Source of the DNA: Escherichia virus TH10
Sequence record: MT446388.1
DNA: 64,000 bases
Direction: 5' to 3' (one strand)
Shown here: in pieces, positions 16,427-23,510 of the stretch
How positions within the stretch are numbered: position 1 is the first letter of the stretch
How the letters are laid out: each line of letters starts with the position of its first letter
Notes under the pieces: model-generated
Database searches by the model: none
The model's input: only the letters and a program-made list of their open reading frames with translations
What the model was told of the DNA's origin: nothing
Made by a program: the position numbers and the translations under genes

Positions 16427-17842
16427 ATGAGCGAATTATTTAAACATGCGCACCTTCATGCAGGTCGAACTGAAAATGGTGCTGTAAACCATACTTCATC
16501 AATGTCTGCTCTTGTAGACTTTTACAAAGCTGCTGGTTCTAGCCGTAGCAATGTAGAAATCTTACCAGACTTGTTCTACAAAGCTTTGCATGAGGATGTT
16601 GATGTTGCAGTTCGTATTTTACTGCATATGCGAGATGTACGAGAAGGTATGGGTGAGCGTAAAGCTTTCCGAACTGTTTTACTTCAAGCAATTGAAGATA
16701 AGATTTTAGAGCCTACACAGGTTCTTCGCATTATGGATAAGATTGCAGAGCTTGGTCGTTTTGATGACTTCAAAATCTTCGTCGGTACTCGTTTCGAAAC
16801 AGATGCCTTCAAACATTTAGAAGCTGCATTACTAGACCCTGCAACAGCAGGTTTGGCAGCCAAGTGGTTACCACGAGTCAAACCACGCCATAAGCATTTT
16901 GTAAAACGTTTCTGCAAGTTTGCAAACTTAAGTGAGAAAGAGTACCGCACACTGTTGTCTGCACTATCTGATACAGTTGAGCAAAAAATCTCTGCTAATG
17001 AGTTTGGTAAGATTGACTACAGTAAGATTCCTTCACTTGCTGCTGCACGTTACCAAAAACTGTTTAACCGTAAAGATGGAGAGCGCTACAAAGCTTACAT
17101 CGAGTCATTATCAAAGGGTGAGGCTAAGATTAATGCTGGTGCTGTTTACCCATACGATGTGATTAAATCTGTTAAGTATGGTAATGCAGATGTTGCTAAT
17201 GAGCAGTGGAAAGCACTACCAAACTGGATGGCAGAGGGTGAAAACATTCTATGTATGTCTGATGTTTCAAGTTCAATGTCTTGGGTGAATTTTGGCTCAA
17301 TTACTGCCCTTGATATTGGTGTATCACTTGCCTTGTATGTAGCAGAACGCAATACAGGTTGCTTTAAGAACGAGTTAATGGTTTATTCAACAAACCCTCA
17401 TTTCATCGAACTGAGTGGCGATTTAAAGAACCGTCACCGTCAGGTAATGCGACATGTTGAATACGGTTCAACTAACTTACAAGCAGCTTTTGACCGCATC
17501 CTTGAGACAGGTAAGAGAAACAACTTGACTCAGAAAGATATGCCAAGTAAGCTTATCATCTTCTCTGATATGGAGTTCAATCAGGTTGACGGTGCAAATG
17601 GTCGTACAAACTTTGAAGCAATTCAGAGTAAGTACAAAAAAGCTGGATATGAGATGCCACAACTGGTATTCTGGTACTTAGCAAACCGTAATGGTACTTG
17701 CGAAGTATCTGTTAAGGATAACGGTGTAGCAATGGTATCTGGTTTCTCTCCAGCCACTTTAAAAGCTCTGCTTGGTGGTGAGAAGTTTGACCCAATCAGT
17801 GTAATGCTCAAAGCAGTAATGATTGACCGTTATATCTGGTAA
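16427..17842 (+). CDS. vWA-domain protein with Ro60 (TROVE+vWA)-like architecture (471 aa)
   Basis: C-terminal MIDAS motif D-V-S-S-S (LCMSDVSSSMSW) and later FSDME typical of vWA; about 270-aa helical N-terminal domain; sits immediately 5' of the tRNA/Y-RNA-like array. Confidence 0.6.
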   Translation: MSELFKHAHLHAGRTENGAVNHTSSMSALVDFYKAAGSSRSNVEILPDLFYKALHEDVDVAVRILLHMRDVREGMGERKAFRTVLLQAIEDKILEPTQVLRIMDKIAELGRFDDFKIFVGTRFETDAFKHLEAALLDPATAGLAAKWLPRVKPRHKHFVKRFCKFANLSEKEYRTLLSALSDTVEQKISANEFGKIDYSKIPSLAAARYQKLFNRKDGERYKAYIESLSKGEAKINAGAVYPYDVIKSVKYGNADVANEQWKALPNWMAEGENILCMSDVSSSMSWVNFGSITALDIGVSLALYVAERNTGCFKNELMVYSTNPHFIELSGDLKNRHRQVMRHVEYGSTNLQAAFDRILETGKRNNLTQKDMPSKLIIFSDMEFNQVDGANGRTNFEAIQSKYKKAGYEMPQLVFWYLANRNGTCEVSVKDNGVAMVSGFSPATLKALLGGEKFDPISVMLKAVMIDRYIW

Positions 17843-17860: not shown

Positions 17861-17889
17861 TTGACAATGTGTTTAATACCCTTTAATAT
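17861..17889 (+). promoter_or_regulatory. sigma70-like promoter (TTGACA-17-TAATAT)
   Basis: hexamers between the vWA gene and tRNA array. Confidence 0.5.
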
Positions 17890-17951: not shown

Positions 17952-17980
17952 TTGACAATCACTAAAAAATAATGTTAAAG
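17952..17980 (+). promoter_or_regulatory. possible promoter (TTGACA .. TTAAAG)
   Basis: -35 good, -10 weak; about 30 nt upstream of first tRNA. Confidence 0.35.
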
Positions 17981-18007
17981 TGGTTACATAGAGTTTGAAA
18001 AGTTTAT

Positions 18008-18084
18008 CTCTGTTTAGCTCAGCTTGGTAGAGCGTTCCGTTTGGGGCGGTAAGGCCGGAGGTTCAAGTCCTCCAACAGAGACCA
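18008..18084 (+). tRNA. tRNA-Pro (UGG)
   Basis: 7-bp acceptor CTCTGTT/AACAGAG, T-arm GGAGG-TTCAAGT-CCTCC, loop ttTGGgg, encoded CCA. Confidence 0.75.
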
Positions 18085-18091
18085 AATTAAT

Positions 18092-18169
18092 GTTCCAGTA
18101 GACAAAATGGTAAAGTCACCACTCTTTCAAAGTGGATATCTGAGGGTTCAAATCCCTTCTGGAACGCCA
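18092..18169 (+). tRNA. tRNA-Glu (UUC)
   Basis: acceptor GTTCCAG/CTGGAAC, anticodon stem CCACT/AGTGG, loop ctTTCaa, CCA. Confidence 0.8.
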
Positions 18170-18176
18170 GTTTTGA

Positions 18177-18248
18177 CAGAAGACCAATTACAGCAAACTT
18201 AATCTACTCATCTGAAAGTTAATCGGACAAAGAAGATATTTGGTCTGG
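18177..18248 (+). ncRNA. structured element 1 (CAGAAGACC..GGTCTGG helix)
   Basis: 5' CAGAAGACCAA pairs with 3' TTGGTCTGG; no ORF; one of 4 copies with compensatory changes. Confidence 0.4.
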
Positions 18249-18259
18249 TCATTAAGAAT

Positions 18260-18336
18260 TGCGGGTATAGAGAAAGGGCGTCTCACATGTCTCATTAGCA
18301 TGGTATCGGCAGGTTCGACTCCTGCACCCGCCTCCA
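18260..18336 (+). tRNA. tRNA with CAU anticodon (Met or Ile2), atypical
   Basis: T-arm GCAGG-TTCGACT-CCTGC, acceptor with 1-72 mismatch, loop ctCATta, CCA; irregular D arm and 6-nt variable region. Confidence 0.55.
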
Positions 18337-18342
18337 ATTTTG

Positions 18343-18401
18343 CAGAAGACCGTATTCAGCAACAAAATACTTTTTGCGGATAAAAGAAAAACACGGTCTG
18401 G
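18343..18401 (+). ncRNA. structured element 2 (CAGAAGACC..GGTCTGG helix)
   Basis: 5' CAGAAGACCGT pairs with 3' ACGGTCTGG. Confidence 0.4.
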
Positions 18402-18412
18402 CAATGTATTAA

Positions 18413-18489
18413 GGTTAGGAAGCACATAAGGTATGTGCGGTCGCCTGTTAAGCGAATGGCACAGGGTTCGAATCCCTGACTAACCGCCA
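18413..18489 (+). tRNA. tRNA-Asn (GUU)
   Basis: T-arm CAGGG-TTCGAAT-CCCTG, D-stem GCAC/GTGC, loop ctGTTaa, CCA. Confidence 0.75.
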
Positions 18490-18497
18490 AATTAAAT

Positions 18498-18585
18498 GTG
18501 TCGTTATCCCGTAGATGGTAGCGGTGGGGACTGTAAATCCCTTGTCATTGAGACTCGGTAGGTTCGACTCCTACACGGCACACCA
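18498..18585 (+). tRNA. tRNA-Tyr (GUA), type II
   Basis: acceptor GTGTCGT/ACGGCAC, anticodon stem GGGGA/TCCCT, loop ctGTAaa, long variable arm, T-arm GTAGG-TTCGACT-CCTAC, CCA. Confidence 0.8.
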
Positions 18586-18590
18586 ATAAA

Positions 18591-18667
18591 GGCTATGTAG
18601 TTTAACTGGAGAAAATACTCCCCTGTCACGGGAGATGATGTGAGTTCAAGTCTCATCGTAGCCGCCA
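18591..18667 (+). tRNA. tRNA-Asp (GUC)
   Basis: acceptor GGCTATG/CGTAGCC, anticodon stem CTCCC/GGGAG, loop ctGTCac, CCA. Confidence 0.8.
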
Positions 18668-18728
18668 ATTTTGAGAGGGCTATTTAGCCCCTCCCTTAAA
18701 GAGTTCTTACGAGTATTCTTTAAAGGAG

Positions 18729-18804
18729 CAGAAGACCAAATACAGCAAGAACGTATGAAAATTTCAAGCCAATTTAATTTTGAAAAATTTAAAACTTGGT
18801 CTGG
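18729..18804 (+). ncRNA. structured element 3 (CAGAAGACC..GGTCTGG helix)
   Basis: 5' CAGAAGACCAA pairs with 3' TTGGTCTGG; interior A/T-rich. Confidence 0.4.
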
Positions 18805-18817
18805 CTCAACAAATTTA

Positions 18818-18948
18818 CAGAAGACCGTTTACAGCAAAACTTAAACAATCTATTTCTCGGTAAAGAAAAGGCGAAGGTTCGATTCCTTCACTCGGCAGAT
18901 GTCGAGTTGGTGTAATGGTAGCACTTAAGATGATAAACAACGGTCTGG
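18818..18948 (+). ncRNA. candidate Y-RNA-like RNA: permuted tRNA-like module closed by terminal helix
   Basis: order is helix strand (CAGAAGACCGTT), T-arm (GAAGG-TTCGATT-CCTTC), acceptor 3' strand ACTCGGC, 4-nt loop, acceptor 5' strand GTCGAGT (7 bp incl. one G-U), D-arm GTG-TAATGGTAG-CAC, helix strand (AACGGTCTGG). Confidence 0.5.
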
Positions 18949-19097
18949 TAATTGTCTTTGTAGATAAGTTATTAAGCTTACCTGTGAGTATGCGACCACA
19001 AAGGGTGAAAGGGTAAATTCTAGATTTAAACCCAAAAAGGCACATCGCTACAGACCTTAAGCAAGTCTGGGTAGCTTATCTACAAAGATAATTTAAT

Positions 19098-19173
19098 GGA
19101 AGTGTAGCAGAATGGTGATGCGGCAGACTTTTAATCTGACAGGCGATGGGTTCGAATCCCTCCACTTCTACCA
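19098..19173 (+). tRNA. tRNA-Lys (UUU)
   Basis: acceptor GGAAGTG/CACTTCT, anticodon stem CAGA/TCTG, loop ctTTTaa, GGGTTCGAATCCC T-arm, CCA. Confidence 0.7.
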
Positions 19174-19251
19174 AATTCACCCTTAACTGAGAAACACCTG
19201 CGCGGCTGGAAACACCCACTCAACAGTTTCTCTAACTAGGGTACTTATTCT

Positions 19252-19328
19252 GGTTCAGTCGCAGATAAGGTAATGCAAGGGTCTCATAAGCCCTATGAAT
19301 GTGGGTTCGATTCCCATCTGAACCTCCA
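19252..19328 (+). tRNA. tRNA with CAU anticodon (Met/Ile2)
   Basis: acceptor GGTTCAG/CTGAACC, anticodon stem AGGGT/GCCCT, loop ctCATaa, T-arm GTGGG-TTCGATT-CCCAT, CCA. Confidence 0.7.
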
Positions 19329-19329
19329 A

Positions 19330-19405
19330 GCTGGTATAGTTAAGAAGGTTATAACACTCCCCTGATAAGGGAACATCGGTGGTTCGATTCCACCTACCAG
19401 TACCA
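19330..19405 (+). tRNA. tRNA-Ile (GAU)
   Basis: acceptor GCTGGTA/TACCAGT, loop ctGATaa, T-arm GGTGG-TTCGATT-CCACC, CCA. Confidence 0.75.
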
Positions 19406-19420
19406 ATTTCAATAAAGTTG

Positions 19421-19449
19421 TTGACATTGAGATGTGACAGCTTTATAGT
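19421..19449 (+). promoter_or_regulatory. sigma70-like promoter (TTGACA-17-TATAGT)
   Basis: consensus hexamers inside tRNA array; followed by about 200 nt ORF-free transcript before tRNA-Arg. Confidence 0.55.
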
Positions 19450-19652
19450 AACCTTAGTTTTCGTTGCGTAGCGTCTATTTTGCAAATTTAAAATAAATGC
19501 AAACGACAATGTTTTTCTGGCAGTAGCTTGATAGGCTAAACACCAGTGAGGTCTTCCAACCCCTCATCAAAGAATTTGGCGTACTAGCCCACGGTATGAT
19601 TAATAAGGTGGGCATCTTTAAGGGCTTTCTCAGAGAGTCTTTAAAGATTAAT

Positions 19653-19729
19653 GCACCCTTAGTTCAATTGGATAGAGCAACGGTCTTCTAAATCGTTAGT
19701 TACAGGTTCGAATCCTGTAGGGTGTGCCA
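19653..19729 (+). tRNA. tRNA-Arg (UCU)
   Basis: acceptor GCACCCT/AGGGTGT, D-arm AGTTCAATTGGATAGAGC, loop ctTCTaa, T-arm ACAGG-TTCGAAT-CCTGT, CCA. Confidence 0.8.
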
Positions 19730-19877
19730 AATAGTTAGCAGATTGCTTAGACGACCTTATCGGGTCTCCGTGTAAGGAGGTGGTCTGTATCTCATGTTTT
19801 CCAGAACATGTAAATAATCTGAGAAGGGGCTTTACAGTGTTGAGATAATACGGTAAGCTTCGAATTATAGTTTTAAT

Positions 19878-19948
19878 AGGGGTGAGCTATGGCAGCAATA
19901 GAGTCTCCAAAATTCTTGATTAGAGTTCGAATCTCTACACCCCTGCCA
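19878..19948 (+). tRNA. tRNA-Trp (CCA), short
   Basis: perfect acceptor AGGGGTG/CACCCCT, T-arm TAGAG-TTCGAAT-CTCTA, loop ctCCAaa, CCA. Confidence 0.65.
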
Positions 19949-19962
19949 GAACAGGTGCTTGT

Positions 19963-20367
19963 ATGAAACTTTGTAGAAAATGTTCTCAAGAAAAGCCTTT
20001 AAGCTGCTTTCATAAAAGAGGTAATGGCTATCAGTCTGCTTGCAAAGATTGTAAAGCTAAGTACTCAGCAAAGAGATACAAAGAAGACCCTACTTATAAA
20101 GCAAAAAGAAAAGTTAGGGCAAAATATGACAAAAAGAGGAACAGAGAGTTCCTTAGTAGATATAAAAAGTTTTGCAAATGCAGAATATGTGGCGAATCTG
20201 AGCCAGTAGCTTTGGATTTTCATCACTTAGACCCTAAAGAGAAAGATTTTGCTCCAAGCAATCTTAAAACTTACTCTAGGGGCACTATTAAGCGTGAAGT
20301 CCGTAAGTGTGTTGTGCTTTGTTCAAACTGTCATAGGAAAGTTCATGCAGGACTGTTAAGTATTTAA
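19963..20367 (+). CDS. HNH endonuclease (134 aa)
   Basis: Cys-rich zinc-binding N-terminus; HNH motif DFHHLDP..N..VVLCSNCHRKVH; embedded in tRNA array. Confidence 0.8.
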   Translation: MKLCRKCSQEKPLSCFHKRGNGYQSACKDCKAKYSAKRYKEDPTYKAKRKVRAKYDKKRNREFLSRYKKFCKCRICGESEPVALDFHHLDPKEKDFAPSNLKTYSRGTIKREVRKCVVLCSNCHRKVHAGLLSI

Positions 20368-20380
20368 CAGTCTTATTAGG

Positions 20381-20468
20381 GGTAGGTAGCGGCTAATGGC
20401 AGCCAAACAGTCTTGAAAACTGTTGCCACTGTAGAGATACGGTGAGGGTTCGACTCCTTTACTTACCG
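20381..20468 (+). tRNA. tRNA-Ser (UGA), type II
   Basis: acceptor GGTAGGT/ACTTACC, anticodon stem ACAGT/ACTGT, loop ctTGAaa, long variable arm, T-loop TTCGACT; CCA not encoded. Confidence 0.75.
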
Positions 20469-20626
20469 CCTAATAAGATTTAAAGCCAAGCTTCATTCGG
20501 ATGTTGCTTTGGTATCCCTCGTGTATTGTCGTACACGCACAGTAAAACACCTAGTAGGTGTCACGGAGAAGAGATAATATCAAGCTCTCCAAAGGTTCTA
20601 GTCACCGGATTAAACAAGACTATGCA

Positions 20627-20647
20627 AAGACCTTTTTAGGTCTTTTT
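20627..20647 (+). terminator. terminator-like hairpin inside tRNA array
   Basis: AAGACC-TTTTTA-GGTCTT followed by TTTA. Confidence 0.35.
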
Positions 20648-20726
20648 AGAGGGCTTCTAAGGTTATTACAGCTTGTTGTGGAACCTTGTTGCTTAGGTTC
20701 TTAGAAGTTCTCTAAAAAGGTTTAAT

Positions 20727-20804
20727 GGGAGATTGACGGTAATTGGTAAACCTACCATCCTTAGAAGTTGGTGTTTGAGGGTTCGAATCCCTTGTCTCCT
20801 ACCA
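20727..20804 (+). tRNA. tRNA, anticodon UAG (Leu-like), short variable arm
   Basis: acceptor GGGAGAT/GTCTCCT, T-arm GAGGG-TTCGAAT-CCCTT, loop ctTAGaa, CCA; lacks type II arm. Confidence 0.6.
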
Positions 20805-20811
20805 AATTAAT

Positions 20812-20887
20812 GCAGGTGTAGCAAAATGGTTATGCGGCTGACTCTTAATCAGTAAGACGATGGGTTCAATTCCCTCCACCTGTACCA
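20812..20887 (+). tRNA. tRNA-Lys (CUU)
   Basis: acceptor GCAGGTG/CACCTGT, anticodon stem GCTGA/TCAGT, loop ctCTTaa, GGGTTCAATTCCC T-arm, CCA. Confidence 0.7.
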
Positions 20888-20893
20888 AACAAT

Positions 20894-20969
20894 GGGGATG
20901 TAGTTTACATGGTTAAAACATAAGTTTTGCAAACTTAAGTACAGGGTTCAATTCCCTGCTTCTCCACCA
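20894..20969 (+). tRNA. tRNA-Ala (UGC)
   Basis: acceptor with G3:U70 pair (Ala identity element), anticodon stem TAAGT/ACTTA, loop ttTGCaa, T-arm CAGGG-TTCAATT-CCCTG, CCA. Confidence 0.8.
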
Positions 20970-20975
20970 ATTAGT

Positions 20976-21050
20976 GCATCCATAGTTTAAACGGGAAAAT
21001 TACAGTCTTCCAAACTGAGGTTGAGGGTTCGATTCCCTCTGGATGCTCCA
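20976..21050 (+). tRNA. tRNA-Gly (UCC)
   Basis: perfect acceptor GCATCCA/TGGATGC, loop ctTCCaa, T-arm GAGGG-TTCGATT-CCCTC, CCA. Confidence 0.75.
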
Positions 21051-21056
21051 AACAAT

Positions 21057-21133
21057 GCTGCTTTCGTATAATTGGCTATTACACATCCCTTGTAAGGATG
21101 GAAATGCAGGTTCGAGTCCTGTGAGCAGCACCA
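21057..21133 (+). tRNA. tRNA-Thr (UGU)
   Basis: acceptor GCTGCTT/GAGCAGC, anticodon stem CATCC/GGATG, loop ctTGTaa, T-loop TTCGAGT, CCA. Confidence 0.8.
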
Positions 21134-21137
21134 ATTC

Positions 21138-21226
21138 AGAGGTCAAGTGAAAGACCGCTTTGAGTCAACTGAAGACCGTAACAAATTCCACGGAGTTGAG
21201 TTAGCGGCACAACTCCAGACCTCTTT
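21138..21226 (+). ncRNA. structured ORF-free element (nested inverted repeats)
   Basis: outer AGAGGTC..GACCTCT and inner GGAGTTG..CAACTCC inverted repeats; contains GAAGACCG motif. Confidence 0.35.
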
Positions 21227-21229
21227 CAT

Positions 21230-21304
21230 ACTCGCTTAGTTTATATGGTAAAACACCACCCTTACAAGATGAAGAAAAAGGTTCAAGTCCTTTAGTGAGT
21301 ACCA
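21230..21304 (+). tRNA. tRNA, isotype uncertain (possibly Val UAC)
   Basis: acceptor ACTCGCT/AGTGAGT, T-arm AAAGG-TTCAAGT-CCTTT, CCA; anticodon stem poorly paired. Confidence 0.55.
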
Positions 21305-21305
21305 T

Positions 21306-21383
21306 GTTCCAGTATCCCAATTGGCAGAGGATGCAAGCTCAAACCTTGTACTAGTGACGGTTCGAATCCGTCTTGGAACACCA
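21306..21383 (+). tRNA. tRNA, anticodon CAA (Leu-like), short variable arm
   Basis: acceptor GTTCCAG/TTGGAAC, anticodon stem GCAAG/CTTGT, loop ctCAAac, T-arm GACGG-TTCGAAT-CCGTC, CCA. Confidence 0.6.
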
Positions 21384-21399
21384 ATTTTAGGAGAACACT

Positions 21400-21507
21400 A
21401 TGAGTAATAAGTCAATTGCAAAAAAGTTTATAGCGTCATTCAAAAACAGACGTAAAAACAACTCTTGTGAAAAACTGTATGGTGTTCTTGTAGGTAAGCA
21501 GGATTAG
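21400..21507 (+). CDS. possible small basic ORF (35 aa)
   Basis: AGGAG RBS 7 nt upstream of ATG; not in ORF track (<60 aa); 3' end overlaps next tRNA by 10 nt. Confidence 0.3.
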   Translation: MSNKSIAKKFIASFKNRRKNNSCEKLYGVLVGKQD

Positions 21508-21573
21508 TTCAAATGGATAGAGCAACAGTCTACGAAGCTGTTAATAGGGGTTCGAATCCCTTATCCTGCACCA
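21498..21573 (+). tRNA. tRNA-Arg (ACG)
   Basis: perfect acceptor GCAGGAT/ATCCTGC, D-arm AGTTCAAATGGATAGAGC, loop ctACGaa, T-loop TTCGAAT, CCA. Confidence 0.8.
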
Positions 21574-21592
21574 ATTTAAAGAGGCTATTTAG

Positions 21593-22150
21593 ATGAGATA
21601 TTTGAAGTATGCTTCATGGATTTTCTTAGCTTTGTTAGAACCATTTGCAGCAACCCTAGCAGTCATCTTAGCACCTTTTGTAGTTCCATTCTACAGTGAG
21701 AAGAAAGGACACTTACCTTTCGGGTTCAGATGGATGGAGACATATGACAACCCAATTGATGGTGATGAAGGTCACGTTAAAAGATGGGCTAATATTAGAT
21801 GGATTGGTAAACTAGGCGTCTACATGCAAAGAGTCGGATGGCTCTGGAGAAACAAAGCTTATAACTTCTCTTACCATGTATTAGGAAGAGATGTAAAAGA
21901 TGTTACTAAGTGGAAAGGTAATATCAACGTAAGTTCTGACCCTGAAGATAATCAGACTGGTTATCTCCTAATGTGGAACAGTAATGCTTGGGGATTATTC
22001 GCCTTTATCCCATCAATTAAAGTCTTTGGTAAACAGTTTTACTGGAGAATTTATATTGGATGGAAACTAAAAAGTGTTGTCCCAGAAGAAAGAGCATTCT
22101 CAAGGGAAAGAGTTATGTTGGCATTCTTTATTCATCCACTGAGAAAGTAA
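21593..22150 (+). CDS. hypothetical membrane protein (185 aa)
   Basis: AAGAGG RBS; hydrophobic N-terminal segment; Trp-rich; embedded in tRNA array. Confidence 0.6.
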   Translation: MRYLKYASWIFLALLEPFAATLAVILAPFVVPFYSEKKGHLPFGFRWMETYDNPIDGDEGHVKRWANIRWIGKLGVYMQRVGWLWRNKAYNFSYHVLGRDVKDVTKWKGNINVSSDPEDNQTGYLLMWNSNAWGLFAFIPSIKVFGKQFYWRIYIGWKLKSVVPEERAFSRERVMLAFFIHPLRK

Positions 22151-22158
22151 AGATTTAA

Positions 22159-22234
22159 AGGGGATTAGTTTACAAGGTTAAAACCTCGGTCTTTGAAATC
22201 GAAGAAGTTGGTTCAATTCCAACATCCCCCGCCA
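22159..22234 (+). tRNA. tRNA-Gln (UUG)
   Basis: acceptor AGGGGAT/ATCCCCC (1-72 mismatch), anticodon stem TCGGT/ATCGA, loop ctTTGaa, T-arm GTTGG-TTCAATT-CCAAC, CCA. Confidence 0.7.
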
Positions 22235-22236
22235 AT

Positions 22237-22315
22237 GCTCCATTACTCCAATTGGCAGAGAGGCCAGACTTAAAATCTGTGTTATGTATCGGTTCGAATC
22301 CGATATGGAGTACCA
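22237..22315 (+). tRNA. tRNA, anticodon UAA (Leu-like), atypical variable region
   Basis: acceptor GCTCCAT/ATGGAGT, T-arm ATCGG-TTCGAAT-CCGAT, loop ctTAAaa, CCA. Confidence 0.55.
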
Positions 22316-22320
22316 AATTT

Positions 22321-22396
22321 AGCGGTATAGCATAACTGGCAATGCAGCAGTCTCTGAAGCTGTCCTATTAAGGTTCAAATCCTTATGCCGCTGCCA
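22321..22396 (+). tRNA. tRNA-Gln (CUG)
   Basis: acceptor AGCGGTA/TGCCGCT, anticodon stem GCAGT/GCTGT, loop ctCTGaa, T-arm TAAGG-TTCAAAT-CCTTA, CCA. Confidence 0.7.
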
Positions 22397-22427
22397 CTTC
22401 TAAGGATTCTTACGAGAGTCCTTAAAT

Positions 22428-22503
22428 GTGGCCTTATCATAAATGGTAATGACCCATGCTGTGAACATGGTCTATACGGGTTCAAATCCCGTAGGTCACC
22501 CCA
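22428..22503 (+). tRNA. tRNA-His (GUG)
   Basis: acceptor GTGGCCT/AGGTCAC, anticodon stem CCATG/CATGG, loop ctGTGaa, discriminator C, CCA. Confidence 0.8.
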
Positions 22504-22508
22504 ATTTA

Positions 22509-22585
22509 TAGTCCAAGTAGCTTATATGGTTAAAGCGCGTGTCTGAAAAACATGAGAAGAGGGTTCAAATCCCACTGGACTACCA
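22509..22585 (+). tRNA. tRNA-Phe (GAA)
   Basis: acceptor TAGTCCA/TGGACTA, anticodon stem CGTGT/ACATG, loop ctGAAaa, T-loop TTCAAAT. Confidence 0.7.
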
Positions 22586-22601
22586 ATTTCAAAGGTGCTT
22601 A

Positions 22602-23336
22602 ATGAAAGAGATGACAGAACAAGGTAAGGAGATTTTTAATCTCTTAAAAACTGGTAAAGGGTTTTCTAATCCCCTTATTACTGGTGCAGCAGTTCTCAGT
22701 GGAACCGTAGCTGCCTCTACATCACTTGTAAGCTCTATTAGCTCTGTAACAGACCCAACAATAAAAGATAAACTTGTTGCTGCTGGACTTACAACAGTTC
22801 TGCTTAACAGCTTTACAACGAGCCTGACAAGCACTACATCAACTACCAAAACACTGACAGATTACGGTCAAAAGTCCATTGATGAGTTTTCATCACGTAT
22901 GCAGGTAGCAAAAGGTTATTCTAATGTTATGGGTGCAGCAGGTGAACAAGTTGGCTGTACACCATTTAGTGGTATTATGGGTGTTGCTACAGAGTATGGT
23001 CAAAAAGCTATTGATACGATTAACAGTGCACTAGACGGTGTTAATGATGTATTAAGTGACTTACAAGACGCTATTGACAAAGGTCTTGATACTATTTCTG
23101 ATTTAGCTAACCAAGCTGTTAGTAAGATTAATGAAGGTATTTCGAAGATTACAGCTTATGCAGATGAAGTTGTGCAGATGATTGAAGAAGAAGCTGCCCT
23201 TATTGCAGAGTACCTTAGAACGAATATCAATGGGTTCTTAGCAGGTATCTTACCAGACTGGTTTGATGATGCTTGTAAAACTGGTGTAATTGATACTATT
23301 GCAACACCAGAAATGAAGAACGCATTACAGAAATAA
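22602..23336 (+). CDS. hypothetical Ser/Thr-rich protein (244 aa)
   Basis: ORF track 22539..23336 starts at GTG inside tRNA-Phe; trimmed to first ATG (MKEMTEQ). Confidence 0.6.
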   Translation: MKEMTEQGKEIFNLLKTGKGFSNPLITGAAVLSGTVAASTSLVSSISSVTDPTIKDKLVAAGLTTVLLNSFTTSLTSTTSTTKTLTDYGQKSIDEFSSRMQVAKGYSNVMGAAGEQVGCTPFSGIMGVATEYGQKAIDTINSALDGVNDVLSDLQDAIDKGLDTISDLANQAVSKINEGISKITAYADEVVQMIEEEAALIAEYLRTNINGFLAGILPDWFDDACKTGVIDTIATPEMKNALQK

Positions 23337-23337
23337 T

Positions 23338-23430
23338 GGAAGATTAACCCTAAAAGGTAAGGGAGCAGTTTGCTAAACTGCCAGTAGCTGAGAAATCGGT
23401 GTACCAGTTCAAGTCTGGTATCTTCCTCCA
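23338..23430 (+). tRNA. tRNA-Ser (GCU), type II
   Basis: perfect acceptor GGAAGAT/ATCTTCC, anticodon stem GCAGT/ACTGC, loop ttGCTaa, long variable arm, T-arm ACCAG-TTCAAGT-CTGGT, CCA. Confidence 0.8.
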
Positions 23431-23434
23431 ATTC

Positions 23435-23510
23435 GAATCCGTGACAGAAATGGCTATGTGCCTGTCTGCAAAACAGGTTTATAAGGGTTCAAGTCCCTTC
23501 GGATTCTCCA
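23435..23510 (+). tRNA. tRNA-Cys (GCA)
   Basis: perfect acceptor GAATCCG/CGGATTC, anticodon stem CCTGT/ACAGG, loop ctGCAaa, T-arm AAGGG-TTCAAGT-CCCTT, CCA. Confidence 0.8.

Follow-up and report, generated by a model that had tools for sequence, protein, structure and literature searches.

The tRNA gene array of Escherichia virus TH10 includes three tRNA-Leu genes that lack a long variable arm. The most probable account, to which we assign a probability of about 0.8, is that this is a phage cluster in which the type I (arm-less) tRNA-Leu are ordinary leucine decoders charged by leucyl-tRNA synthetase (LeuRS), without any recoding. The array spans positions 18008-23510 of a 64,000-nucleotide stretch of sequence record MT446388.1 (this whole stretch is hereafter called the window) and comprises 27 tRNA genes, all on the plus strand, as determined by running ARAGORN on the window. 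In the proposed mechanism, the long variable arm would have been lost while the features read by the LeuRS of Escherichia coli were retained; host synthetases would charge the phage tRNAs, the three tRNA-Leu would receive leucine and read UUR and CUN codons as leucine, and the 27 tRNAs would form a near-minimal and near-complete decoding set fitted to the A/U-rich codon usage of the phage. The oddity of these tRNAs is a real, under-described, and explicable property of a known phage tRNA cluster. The 5.9-kb array region shares 95-97% identity over at least 94% of its length with many Salmonella and Escherichia Felixounavirus genomes, and the window, judged by its sequence, is that of a Felix O1-like phage (Felixounavirus).

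Folding of the arm-less leucine tRNAs

A first-pass annotation, made by reading the letters of the window, had described a large array of about 27 tRNA genes in which three members with leucine anticodons (UAG at 20727, CAA at 21306, and UAA at 22237) appeared to lack the type II arm, and had named automated folding as the check on this impression. ARAGORN returned exactly 27 genes with the same coordinates and anticodons and gave none of the three a type II structure. Their variable regions are 4-7 nt in the ARAGORN brackets, compared with 12-17 nt in the tRNA-Leu of E. coli and phage T4. Including CCA, the three are 78 nt (UAG), 78 nt (CAA), and 79 nt (UAA) long, whereas the long-armed references have 87 nt (E. 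coli leuZ), 85 nt (leuW), 85 nt (leuX), and 87 nt (T4 tRNA-Leu). Leu(UAG) has a variable region of 4-5 nt, A73, the D loop AAUUGGUAA, and a G1.U72 pair; Leu(CAA) has a variable region of 5-6 nt with a terminal U48, A73, a 3-bp D stem, and the D loop CAAUUGGCAGA; and Leu(UAA) has a variable region of 7 nt, also ending in U48, together with A73 and a D arm as in Leu(CAA). The long arms attributed to the Ser and Tyr tRNAs in the first pass were recovered by ARAGORN as well, with total lengths of 90, 93, and 88 nt.

To examine the fold, 18 distinct type I tRNA-Leu sequences from ten phages were aligned and mapped on the standard cloverleaf. Pairing holds in 97.5% of the cells, compensatory changes occur in 18 of the 20 pairs, and 0 of 500 shuffles matched the observed pairing percentage or covariation score, while sliding the pairing register reduced the pairing to 36-48%. 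The differences between the window and Felix O1 in the anticodon stem of Leu(UAG) are fully compensated, and 215 phage records contain Leu(UAA) with an identity of at least 99%. All three genes combine a leucine anticodon, a variable region shorter than about 10 nt, and a covarying cloverleaf, and none has the long variable arm of the class II shape. They are genuine type I (arm-less) tRNA-Leu genes: pseudogene decay is excluded for them, and so, by covariation, is misfolding by hand, which had been kept in mind as an explanation.

The acceptor stem opens with a G1.U72 wobble in 12 of the 18 aligned phage sequences and also in leuZ, not in leuW or leuX. Our literature searches found no statement on arm-less phage tRNA-Leu, although absence there is not proof of absence.

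Leucine identity and probable charging

According to a review of tRNA identity (PMC9976931), the long arm is characteristic of tRNA-Leu, yet it is no identity determinant. For E. coli LeuRS, A73 is crucial and the anticodon and long arm are not, A15-U48, G18G19, and A20a are essential hinge elements, and arm-less variants stay active (PMC9976931). A73 is found in 3/3 tRNA-Leu of the window, in 18/18 aligned phage type I tRNA-Leu, and in 172 of 176 type I tRNA-Leu of IMG/VR loci (among the matches listed). The positions that are invariant in the alignment of 18 sequences are U8, A14, G18, G19, A20a, A35, U48, and A73, and A15 is at least 90% conserved; the hinge set U8-A14, A15-U48, G18G19, and A20a can thus be read from the alignment in the phage tRNA-Leu. 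The identity elements, which the first-pass annotation had proposed to check, are at the level of sequence those of leucine in all three genes. In the ARAGORN folds, the D arm of Leu(CAA) and Leu(UAA) is that of leuZ, leuW, and leuX, with a 3-bp stem and an 11-nt loop (AAUUGGNAGA). The synthetases for serine and tyrosine use the long arm, and the retention of this arm in the Ser and Tyr tRNAs is in line with that use.

According to a 2026 preprint, leucine is inserted at TCG codons in recoded E. coli by a tRNA-Leu that comes from the T5-like phage OSYSP and bears the anticodon CGA. Both tRNA-Leu genes of OSYSP (MF402939.1) are type I and 77 nt long. The tRNA-Leu of OSYSP and other T5-like phages resemble those of the window in being type I, in carrying A73, and in having the same D loop, and the UAG isoacceptor is 84% identical to that of the window; OSYSP differs in belonging to the Demerecviridae and in having two isoacceptors compared with three in the window. 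Because the LeuRS identity set is kept and a tRNA from a type I-only phage inserts leucine, recoding or suppression is not supported. We infer that the array is expressed, that its tRNA-Leu are charged by LeuRS, and what roles the two tRNAs with CAU anticodons have.

Several points weigh against the interpretation of these tRNAs as ordinary leucine decoders. The host frequencies with which the codon usage of the phage is compared (CUG dominant and AGA rare in E. coli) are general background, and Leu(UAG) of the window, which has the same D loop sequence as the other tRNA-Leu, has an irregular D stem in the ARAGORN fold and a U.U mismatch in its anticodon stem. The 2026 preprint does not identify the tRNA-Leu used among the two that OSYSP encodes. 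In the hands of Fan et al. (2019; PMC6614811), the type I tRNA-Leu(CAA) of Streptomyces coelicolor was not charged by E. coli LeuRS, an enzyme that by their statement accepts type II tRNA-Leu only; because the Streptomyces tRNA is not charged, arm-less tRNAs are not automatically substrates of E. coli LeuRS. In addition, the PhageMaP preprint (PMC11482910) scored most tRNAs of phage Bas63 as non-essential when laboratory strains were the hosts, and their benefit would therefore be conditional. The tRNA-Leu(CAA) of S. coelicolor and mitochondrial tRNA-Leu are the known type I relatives (Fan et al., 2019; PMC6614811). However, S. coelicolor has a LeuRS with a specialized leucine-specific domain, whereas the host of the phage would be E. 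coli or Salmonella and the phage tRNAs retain the E. coli-type D arm.

The tRNAs with leucine anticodons could instead be charged with another amino acid or be suppressor-like, as the first-pass annotation had suggested in naming reassigned decoders, and the phage would then recode UUR or CUN codons. We find this barely credible. Only the atypical shape and the failure of E. coli LeuRS on the Streptomyces type I tRNA-Leu (PMC6614811) point toward it, while every anticodon in the ARAGORN table reads a sense codon, with none that reads a stop codon (no CUA, UUA, or UCA). A73 is invariant, the leucine identity elements and the Leu-specific D arm agree with the leucine anticodons, and the leucine-inserting tRNA tested in E. 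coli came from OSYSP. Moreover, UUA and CUU are among the commonest leucine codons of the open reading frames (ORFs) of the window, and ORF translations under the standard code match Pfam strongly (e.g., E 1.2e-89). It is very improbable, too, that the odd members of the array are decaying pseudogenes or gene-finder artefacts. The annotation of related phages speaks for decay, as RefSeq flags tRNA-Tyr and tRNA-His of Felix O1 as pseudogenes and some of these genes are called tRNA-Pseudo or tRNA-OTHER in other phage records, and the first CAU tRNA, tRNA-Tyr, and tRNA-Trp of the window fall below the Rfam threshold. The three tRNA-Leu, however, are above this threshold and covary strongly, Leu(UAA) is nearly identical over its 215 records, and even the first CAU tRNA retains its shape and its 1:72 mismatch across distant phages.

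Distribution of arm-less tRNA-Leu

ARAGORN found only type I tRNA-Leu in Mooglevirus, Suspvirus, an Erwinia phage, T5-like and Aeromonas Demerecviridae, a Cronobacter Vequintavirinae (V5-like) phage, Lactobacillus phage LpeD, the KVP40-like Vibrio phage phi-pp2, and a Yersinia phage together with three metagenomic relatives, while Xanthomonas phage X1 has both types. The type I Leu(UAR) pattern was present on at least 120 IMG/VR contigs. Among the matches listed, the median number of tRNAs per IMG/VR locus was 12 for the type I pattern vs 3 for the type II pattern, and the loci with the type I pattern had the long arm in 104 of 104 Ser and 40 of 43 Tyr tRNAs. A second sample was independent of leucine and consisted of 109 viral loci chosen via a tRNA-Arg pattern. 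Here, 6 tRNA-Leu were type I and 24 were type II, so that the arm-less form is a recurrent minority form, and the type I form was found in 0/18 Ser and 0/9 Tyr tRNAs.

On bacterial chromosomes, the type I pattern was mostly found as solitary genes of Actinomycetota (among the matches listed), in agreement with Fan et al. (2019; PMC6614811), and bacterial arm-less tRNA-Leu seems to be wider than the single Streptomyces case studied. The Actinomycetota with a solitary type I pattern include Nocardia, Mycobacterium, Gordonia, Rhodococcus, and Arthrobacter; the pattern also occurs in Acidobacteriota and cyanobacteria.

Possible reasons for the loss of the arm

The arm-less form may be a neutral or streamlining trait of an old arm-less tRNA-Leu lineage that spread horizontally among phages and has no function of its own, an account to which we give slightly less than even odds. 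Under such neutrality, the form would be tolerated only because LeuRS ignores the arm, and the arm is dispensable for E. coli LeuRS (PMC9976931). A sub-lineage with GGAAUUGG(C/U)AUAC and a (G/A)UU(U/C)U variable region occurs in T5-like, Vequintavirinae, Aeromonas, and Xanthomonas phages, and another with CCAAUUGGCAGAG in Felix O1-like, Erwinia, and Lactobacillus phages; the 84% identity between the Leu(UAG) of Felix O1-like and T5-like phages also fits a shared lineage. However, these sub-lineages were judged by eye on 18 sequences with no phylogeny, and beyond the synthetase constraint neutrality leaves unexplained that Ser and Tyr tRNAs are essentially never arm-less whereas tRNA-Leu often is. 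It is also conceivable, though quite unlikely, that counter-defense, one of the readings offered in the first pass, gave the loss a selective reason, which would add to the interpretation as leucine decoders and not replace it: arm-less tRNA-Leu would escape class II toxins that recognize the long arm and would still be charged, a route that Ser and Tyr tRNAs could not follow because their synthetases need the arm. The Abi toxin AbiEii is reported as probably preferring class II tRNAs, and it is a general finding, cited in the 2026 preprint and in PMC11482910, that phage tRNAs evolve so as to be missed by the tRNA nucleases of the host. The recurrence of arm-less tRNA-Leu in unrelated phage families and host phyla, the greater number of tRNAs at the listed IMG/VR loci with the type I pattern, and the position of the array next to a Ro60-like gene whose homologue reportedly counters the Ppl defense system would suit such a role. 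On the other hand, no known toxin cuts or modifies enterobacterial tRNA-Leu via the arm, evasion of anti-phage toxins is no obvious driver for the solitary chromosomal type I genes of many bacteria, and viral tRNA-Leu were mostly type II in the leucine-independent sample (24 vs 6).

Codon usage and role of the array

Codons were counted in 57 long ORFs of the window, with the following frequencies for the leucine codons and AGA.

CUU, 22.4 per 1000 codons
UUA, 21.9 per 1000 codons
CUG, 10.3 per 1000 codons
UUG, 10.3 per 1000 codons
CUA, 9.9 per 1000 codons
CUC, 4.9 per 1000 codons
AGA, 17.9 per 1000 codons

The anticodons UAA, CAA, and UAG for leucine and UCU for arginine are present in the array, and the leucine anticodon CAG is absent from the 27. 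By their ARAGORN anticodons, the tRNAs serve 20/20 amino acids, and each four-codon box has a single tRNA with U34. Strict wobble leaves 45 of the 61 sense codons readable, and four-way wobble at U34 leaves 59 of 61, which amount to 99.7% of the ORF codons; the two that would go unread, CGG and AUA, are both rare (0.7 and 2.3 per 1000 codons). Near-identical Felixounavirus REP phages are reported to infect E. coli strains deleted for tRNA-Ser(UGA/CGA) by expressing their viral tRNA-Ser(UGA), and tRNAs of such arrays therefore work in vivo. The tRNA-Leu(UAA) of REP5 and REP12 is identical to that of the window.

tRNA gene complement and comparison with other phages

The 27 tRNA genes, all identified by ARAGORN, are as follows, with scores against the Rfam tRNA model (RF00005) where they were obtained.

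18008..18084, plus strand, tRNA-Pro(UGG), Rfam 57.7 bits
18092..18169, plus strand, tRNA-Glu(UUC) with G73, Rfam 60.4 bits
18260..18336, plus strand, first CAU tRNA, initiator-like, below the RF00005 gathering threshold
18413..18489, plus strand, tRNA-Asn(GUU), Rfam 48 bits
18498..18585, plus strand, tRNA-Tyr of 88 nt with a long arm, sole Rfam match the tRNA-Sec model at 29.6 bits
18591..18667, plus strand, tRNA-Asp(GUC), Rfam 60.6 bits
19098..19173, plus strand, tRNA-Lys(UUU), Rfam 54.4 bits
19252..19328, plus strand, second CAU tRNA, most likely elongator Met, Rfam 55.6 bits
19330..19405, plus strand, tRNA-Ile(GAU), Rfam 62.3 bits
19653..19729, plus strand, tRNA-Arg(UCU), Rfam 62.8 bits
19878..19948, plus strand, tRNA-Trp(CCA) of 71 nt with a reduced D arm and G73, under the Rfam threshold
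20381..20470, plus strand, tRNA-Ser(UGA), type II, 90 nt, 3' CCU, Rfam 31.1 bits
20727..20804, plus strand, tRNA-Leu(UAG), type I, 78 nt, Rfam 40.0 bits
20812..20887, plus strand, tRNA-Lys(CUU), Rfam 56.9 bits
20894..20969, plus strand, tRNA-Ala(UGC) with G3.U70, Rfam 62.7 bits
20976..21050, plus strand, tRNA-Gly(UCC), Rfam 59.6 bits
21057..21133, plus strand, tRNA-Thr(UGU), Rfam 54.7 bits
21230..21304, plus strand, tRNA-Val(UAC), Rfam 55.8 bits
21306..21383, plus strand, tRNA-Leu(CAA), type I, 78 nt, Rfam 43.6 bits
21498..21573, plus strand, tRNA-Arg(ACG), Rfam 61.1 bits
22159..22234, plus strand, tRNA-Gln(UUG) with an A1.C72 mismatch, Rfam 56.6 bits
22237..22315, plus strand, tRNA-Leu(UAA), type I, 79 nt, Rfam 47.5 bits
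22321..22396, plus strand, tRNA-Gln(CUG), Rfam 57 bits
22428..22503, plus strand, tRNA-His(GUG) with C73 and U at -1, Rfam 53.3 bits
22510..22585, plus strand, tRNA-Phe(GAA), Rfam 45 bits
23338..23430, plus strand, tRNA-Ser(GCU), type II, 93 nt, Rfam 46.2 bits
23435..23510, plus strand, tRNA-Cys(GCA), Rfam 56.3 bits

The gathering threshold of RF00005 is exceeded by 24 of the 27 genes, the first CAU tRNA, tRNA-Tyr, and tRNA-Trp being the three that miss it, and the 3' CCA is encoded in 26 of the 27, the exception being Ser(UGA) with CCU. The acceptor mismatches noted in the first pass were also seen in the ARAGORN folds, as U1.C72 in the first CAU tRNA, A1.C72 in Gln(UUG), G7.A66 in Asn, and U6.U67 in Ala. 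The base at position -1 of tRNA-His is U instead of G, as it is in Felix O1, Mordin, SUSP2, and the T5-like OSYSP, while one metagenomic relative has G; G-1 is the main identity element for the histidine synthetase HisRS.

The array as such is already known, because the records of related phages annotate its tRNA genes, including three tRNA-Leu. Felixounavirus clusters (e.g., NC_005282, wV8, and Mordin) have gene content and order in common with the window at 95-97% DNA identity. Felix O1, however, has 22 annotated tRNA genes compared with 27 in the window; its locus is without Arg(UCU) and Trp, both of which are present in the window, and its second CAU tRNA and both Ser genes were found by ARAGORN and are unannotated in RefSeq. 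The tRNA cluster of T4 resembles the array in that a homing endonuclease gene and small stable RNAs (rnaC and rnaD) lie among the tRNAs, but it has only 8 tRNAs and its tRNA-Leu is type II with 87 nt.

The two tRNAs with CAU anticodons

The first pass had pointed out two tRNAs with CAU anticodons, at 18260 and 19252, and ARAGORN agrees. The first (18260-18336) is very deviant, with a U1.C72 mismatch, U73, U37, a 3-nt linker between the acceptor and D stems, and the pairs G4-C69 and G5-C68. It had no RF00005 match even at E ≤ 10, and its only match was to the tRNA-Sec model with 15.9 bits. Nevertheless, relatives and T5-like phages likewise have position 1:72 unpaired (U.C, A.A, or U.U), and the shape and mismatch persist across phages whose Ro60-like proteins share only 53-63% identity. 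The second (19252-19328) has G1-C72, U4-A69, C5-G68, U73, and an anticodon stem with GGG/CCC.

Bacterial initiator tRNA-fMet is marked by an unpaired 1:72 position, which serves formylation, and by an anticodon stem that ends at its bottom in three consecutive G-C pairs. The first CAU tRNA lacks the three G-C pairs in its anticodon stem (CAUGU/GCAUG), and the second lacks the 1:72 mismatch. Because the two hallmarks are split between the two CAU genes, we only infer that the first is an initiator-like tRNA. The second is most likely an elongator tRNA-Met, because it has G1-C72 and has U4-A69 instead of C4-G69, and because AUA is rare. The determinants of TilS reportedly are C4-G69 and C5-G68 in the acceptor stem (Ikeuchi et al., 2005). 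An assignment of the second CAU tRNA to tRNA-Ile2, which carries lysidine and reads AUA, was considered and is disfavored by U4-A69 and by the low frequency of AUA, while the CAU tRNAs of T4 and Aeromonas phage Akh-2, which start with GGCCC, do fit the TilS determinants. T5-coded tRNAs specific for Met and fMet are mentioned in a review where it cites work from 1975.

The anticodon loop of the first CAU tRNA is CUCAUUA with U37, a position that is normally a purine in tRNAs. U37 is kept in the Felix O1-like relatives and in the Yersinia phage, and the T5-like homologue has A37.

Ro60-like gene and Y-RNA-like units at the head of the array

The following gene and spacer units stand at the head of the array.

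16427..17842, plus strand, Ro60-like gene of 471 aa with DUF2828 and DUF7788 (Pfam), the last gene ahead of the array, with the RefSeq name "RNA-binding protein"
18174..18251, plus strand, Y-RNA-like unit 1, with helix a, an internal loop of 5' AGA and 3' G, helix b (AGACC/GGUCU), and single-stranded UUACAGCAA; from the repeat family, scan, and covariation
18340..18404, plus strand, Y-RNA-like unit 2; from fold, repeat family, scan, and covariation
18726..18807, plus strand, Y-RNA-like unit 3; from fold, repeat family, scan, and covariation
18815..18951, plus strand, Y-RNA-like unit 4 with a permuted tRNA-like domain; from the fold, with its hairpin rebuilt in Mordin and SUSP2

The AlphaFold2 model of the Ro60-like protein has a predicted local distance difference test (pLDDT) score of 83.4, and 10 of its 10 best Foldseek matches in the PDB are Ro60, Rsr, or TROVE proteins (2i91_A matched with E 8.5e-8 and a template modeling (TM) score of 0.67); a Thermus phage Ro60 is among them. 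A motif of the DxSxS metal ion-dependent adhesion site (MIDAS) type (DVSSS) is present in the protein sequence. The gene product is therefore predicted by modeling to have the Ro60 fold, that is, a HEAT-repeat ring and a vWA domain. It has at least 2,827 homologues, many of them encoded by phage contigs 75-270 kb in length, and in all five distant loci examined the Ro60-like gene has tRNA genes at a distance of no more than 6 kb. In the PhageMaP preprint (PMC11482910), the Bas63 protein gp130 is Ro60-like and is reported to counter the Ppl defense system, and its authors guessed that some of the annotated Bas63 tRNAs might be Y RNAs (PMC11482910); the candidates in the window differ from that guess in being unannotated spacers.

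The four units occupy spacers between the first tRNAs and have a 4-bp helix, an AGA/G internal loop, a helix of the form AG...CU, and single-stranded UNNCAGCAA. Conservation of these units extends to Felix O1, Mordin, SUSP2, and phages at a greater distance. A first, loose scan for such units matched everywhere and was dropped, and a strict scan with shuffles was retained. It found four units in each of four Ounavirinae loci and 3, 3, 2-3, and 1-2 units in loci with 63-51% identical Ro60-like proteins, against a shuffle expectation of about 0.0-1.4, and no convincing unit in loci without a Ro60-like gene. The terminal helices of the units covary in 9 of 11 pairs; their 100% pairing is circular because the scan itself required pairing.

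Unit 4 contains a tRNA-like domain (18848-18929, plus strand) that consists of a V-like hairpin, a T arm with GAAGGUUCGAUUCCUUC (18873-18889), a closed 7-bp acceptor-like hairpin (18890-18907), and a D-like arm (18909-18925). This order of modules (V, T, closed acceptor, D) is that of YrlA, and the unit is on the same strand as the Ro60-like gene and less than 4 kb from it. Mordin and SUSP2 form the acceptor-like hairpin as well, but from different sequences. By analogy with M. smegmatis YrlA, for which this has been reported, the closed 7-bp stem could make the unit a substrate of RNase P. A permuted tRNA gene, or fused halves of neighboring tRNAs, was considered for unit 4 and rejected, since the acceptor-like hairpin has a closed end and shows covariation between phages.

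A search of Rfam release 15 at E ≤ 10 matched no unit except for the T arm of unit 4, although it is uncertain whether the release holds a YrlA model. Matches of spacers to a Dictyostelium class I RNA, to microRNAs, and to permuted tmRNA (28.7 bits vs a threshold of 47) were rejected as chance-level, and we treat the permuted tmRNA matches as echoes of tRNA similarity.

The arrangement resembles the Ro60-YrlA loci of bacteria and phages described by Chen et al. (2014; PMC4201824): in the window, too, a Ro60-fold protein is followed by small RNAs on the same strand whose ends form a stem, here within 1.2 kb. It differs from them in that the window protein has DUF2828 and DUF7788 and no TROVE annotation, in that its four units alternate with genuine tRNA genes, and in the 5' motif, which is (G/A)CAGAAG followed by UNNCAGCAA compared with GNCGAAG; the motif of the units is one base off GNCGAAG, and the YrlA motif is GNCGAAN0-1G. 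The four units are, from their sequences, candidate Y RNAs of the Ro60-like protein. A wider proposal, which we hold to be somewhat unlikely, is that the head of the array is an RNA-based counter-defense island that combines a Ro60-like protein with a reportedly Ppl-countering homologue in Bas63, four Y-RNA-like RNAs (one of them a YrlA-type tRNA mimic), and attack-resistant tRNAs including the arm-less tRNA-Leu. This proposal would entail a new family of Y RNAs bound by DUF2828-type Ro60 proteins in many large phages, and a loss of the Leu arm that was selected by host immunity targeting tRNAs.

Other elements in and around the array

A consensus scan and Pfam searches gave the following further features.

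17861-17889, plus strand, sigma-70-like match TTGACA-17-TAATAT, upstream of the array
17952-17981, plus strand, sigma-70-like match TTGACA-18-TAAAGT, upstream of the array
19421-19449, plus strand, sigma-70-like match TTGACA-17-TATAGT, inside the array
19963..20367, plus strand, small HNH-type endonuclease ORF of 134 aa, weak Pfam HNH matches (E about 0.006)
21593..22150, plus strand, DUF7338 ORF of 185 aa, Pfam E 9.7e-61
22602..23336, plus strand, DUF7217 ORF of 244 aa, Pfam E 1.2e-89

The total of promoter matches in the consensus scan was not above that of shuffles, and only their positions are suggestive. In RefSeq, the Felix O1 array has three HNH endonuclease genes at positions other than that of the window. 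The differing HNH sites, together with the window tRNA genes that are missing or unannotated in Felix O1, suggest that homing endonucleases reshuffle the array.

Several long spacers on the plus strand look structured (18955-19090, 19180-19250, 19406-19652, 19730-19877, 20471-20726, and 21134-21229). The spacer 21134-21229 folds at -29.4 kcal/mol (z = -3.8), and a 13-bp closing stem was seen by eye in the spacer 18948-19088. These spacers may be further stable RNAs like rnaC and rnaD of T4, or processing signals.

Implications

The array itself is ordinary for Felixounavirus. In the view of Fan et al. (2019), Streptomyces is the first case in which both types of tRNA-Leu share one LeuRS; E. 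coli infected by a Felix O1-like or T5-like phage would be a second and far more accessible two-type case. The arm-less tRNA-Leu are natural, compact leucine tRNAs that are independent of the anticodon, a property already exploited in synthetic biology. That tRNA-Leu is often arm-less and the Ser and Tyr tRNAs are not is a clean natural readout of the synthetases that require the arm. Should the arm have been lost to evade toxins specific for class II tRNAs, a new kind of phage counter-defense would be added to those known. The Y-RNA-like units, a by-product of this analysis, may outweigh the tRNA-Leu finding, as they provide concrete Y RNA candidates for a phage Ro60-like protein with a reported anti-defense phenotype.

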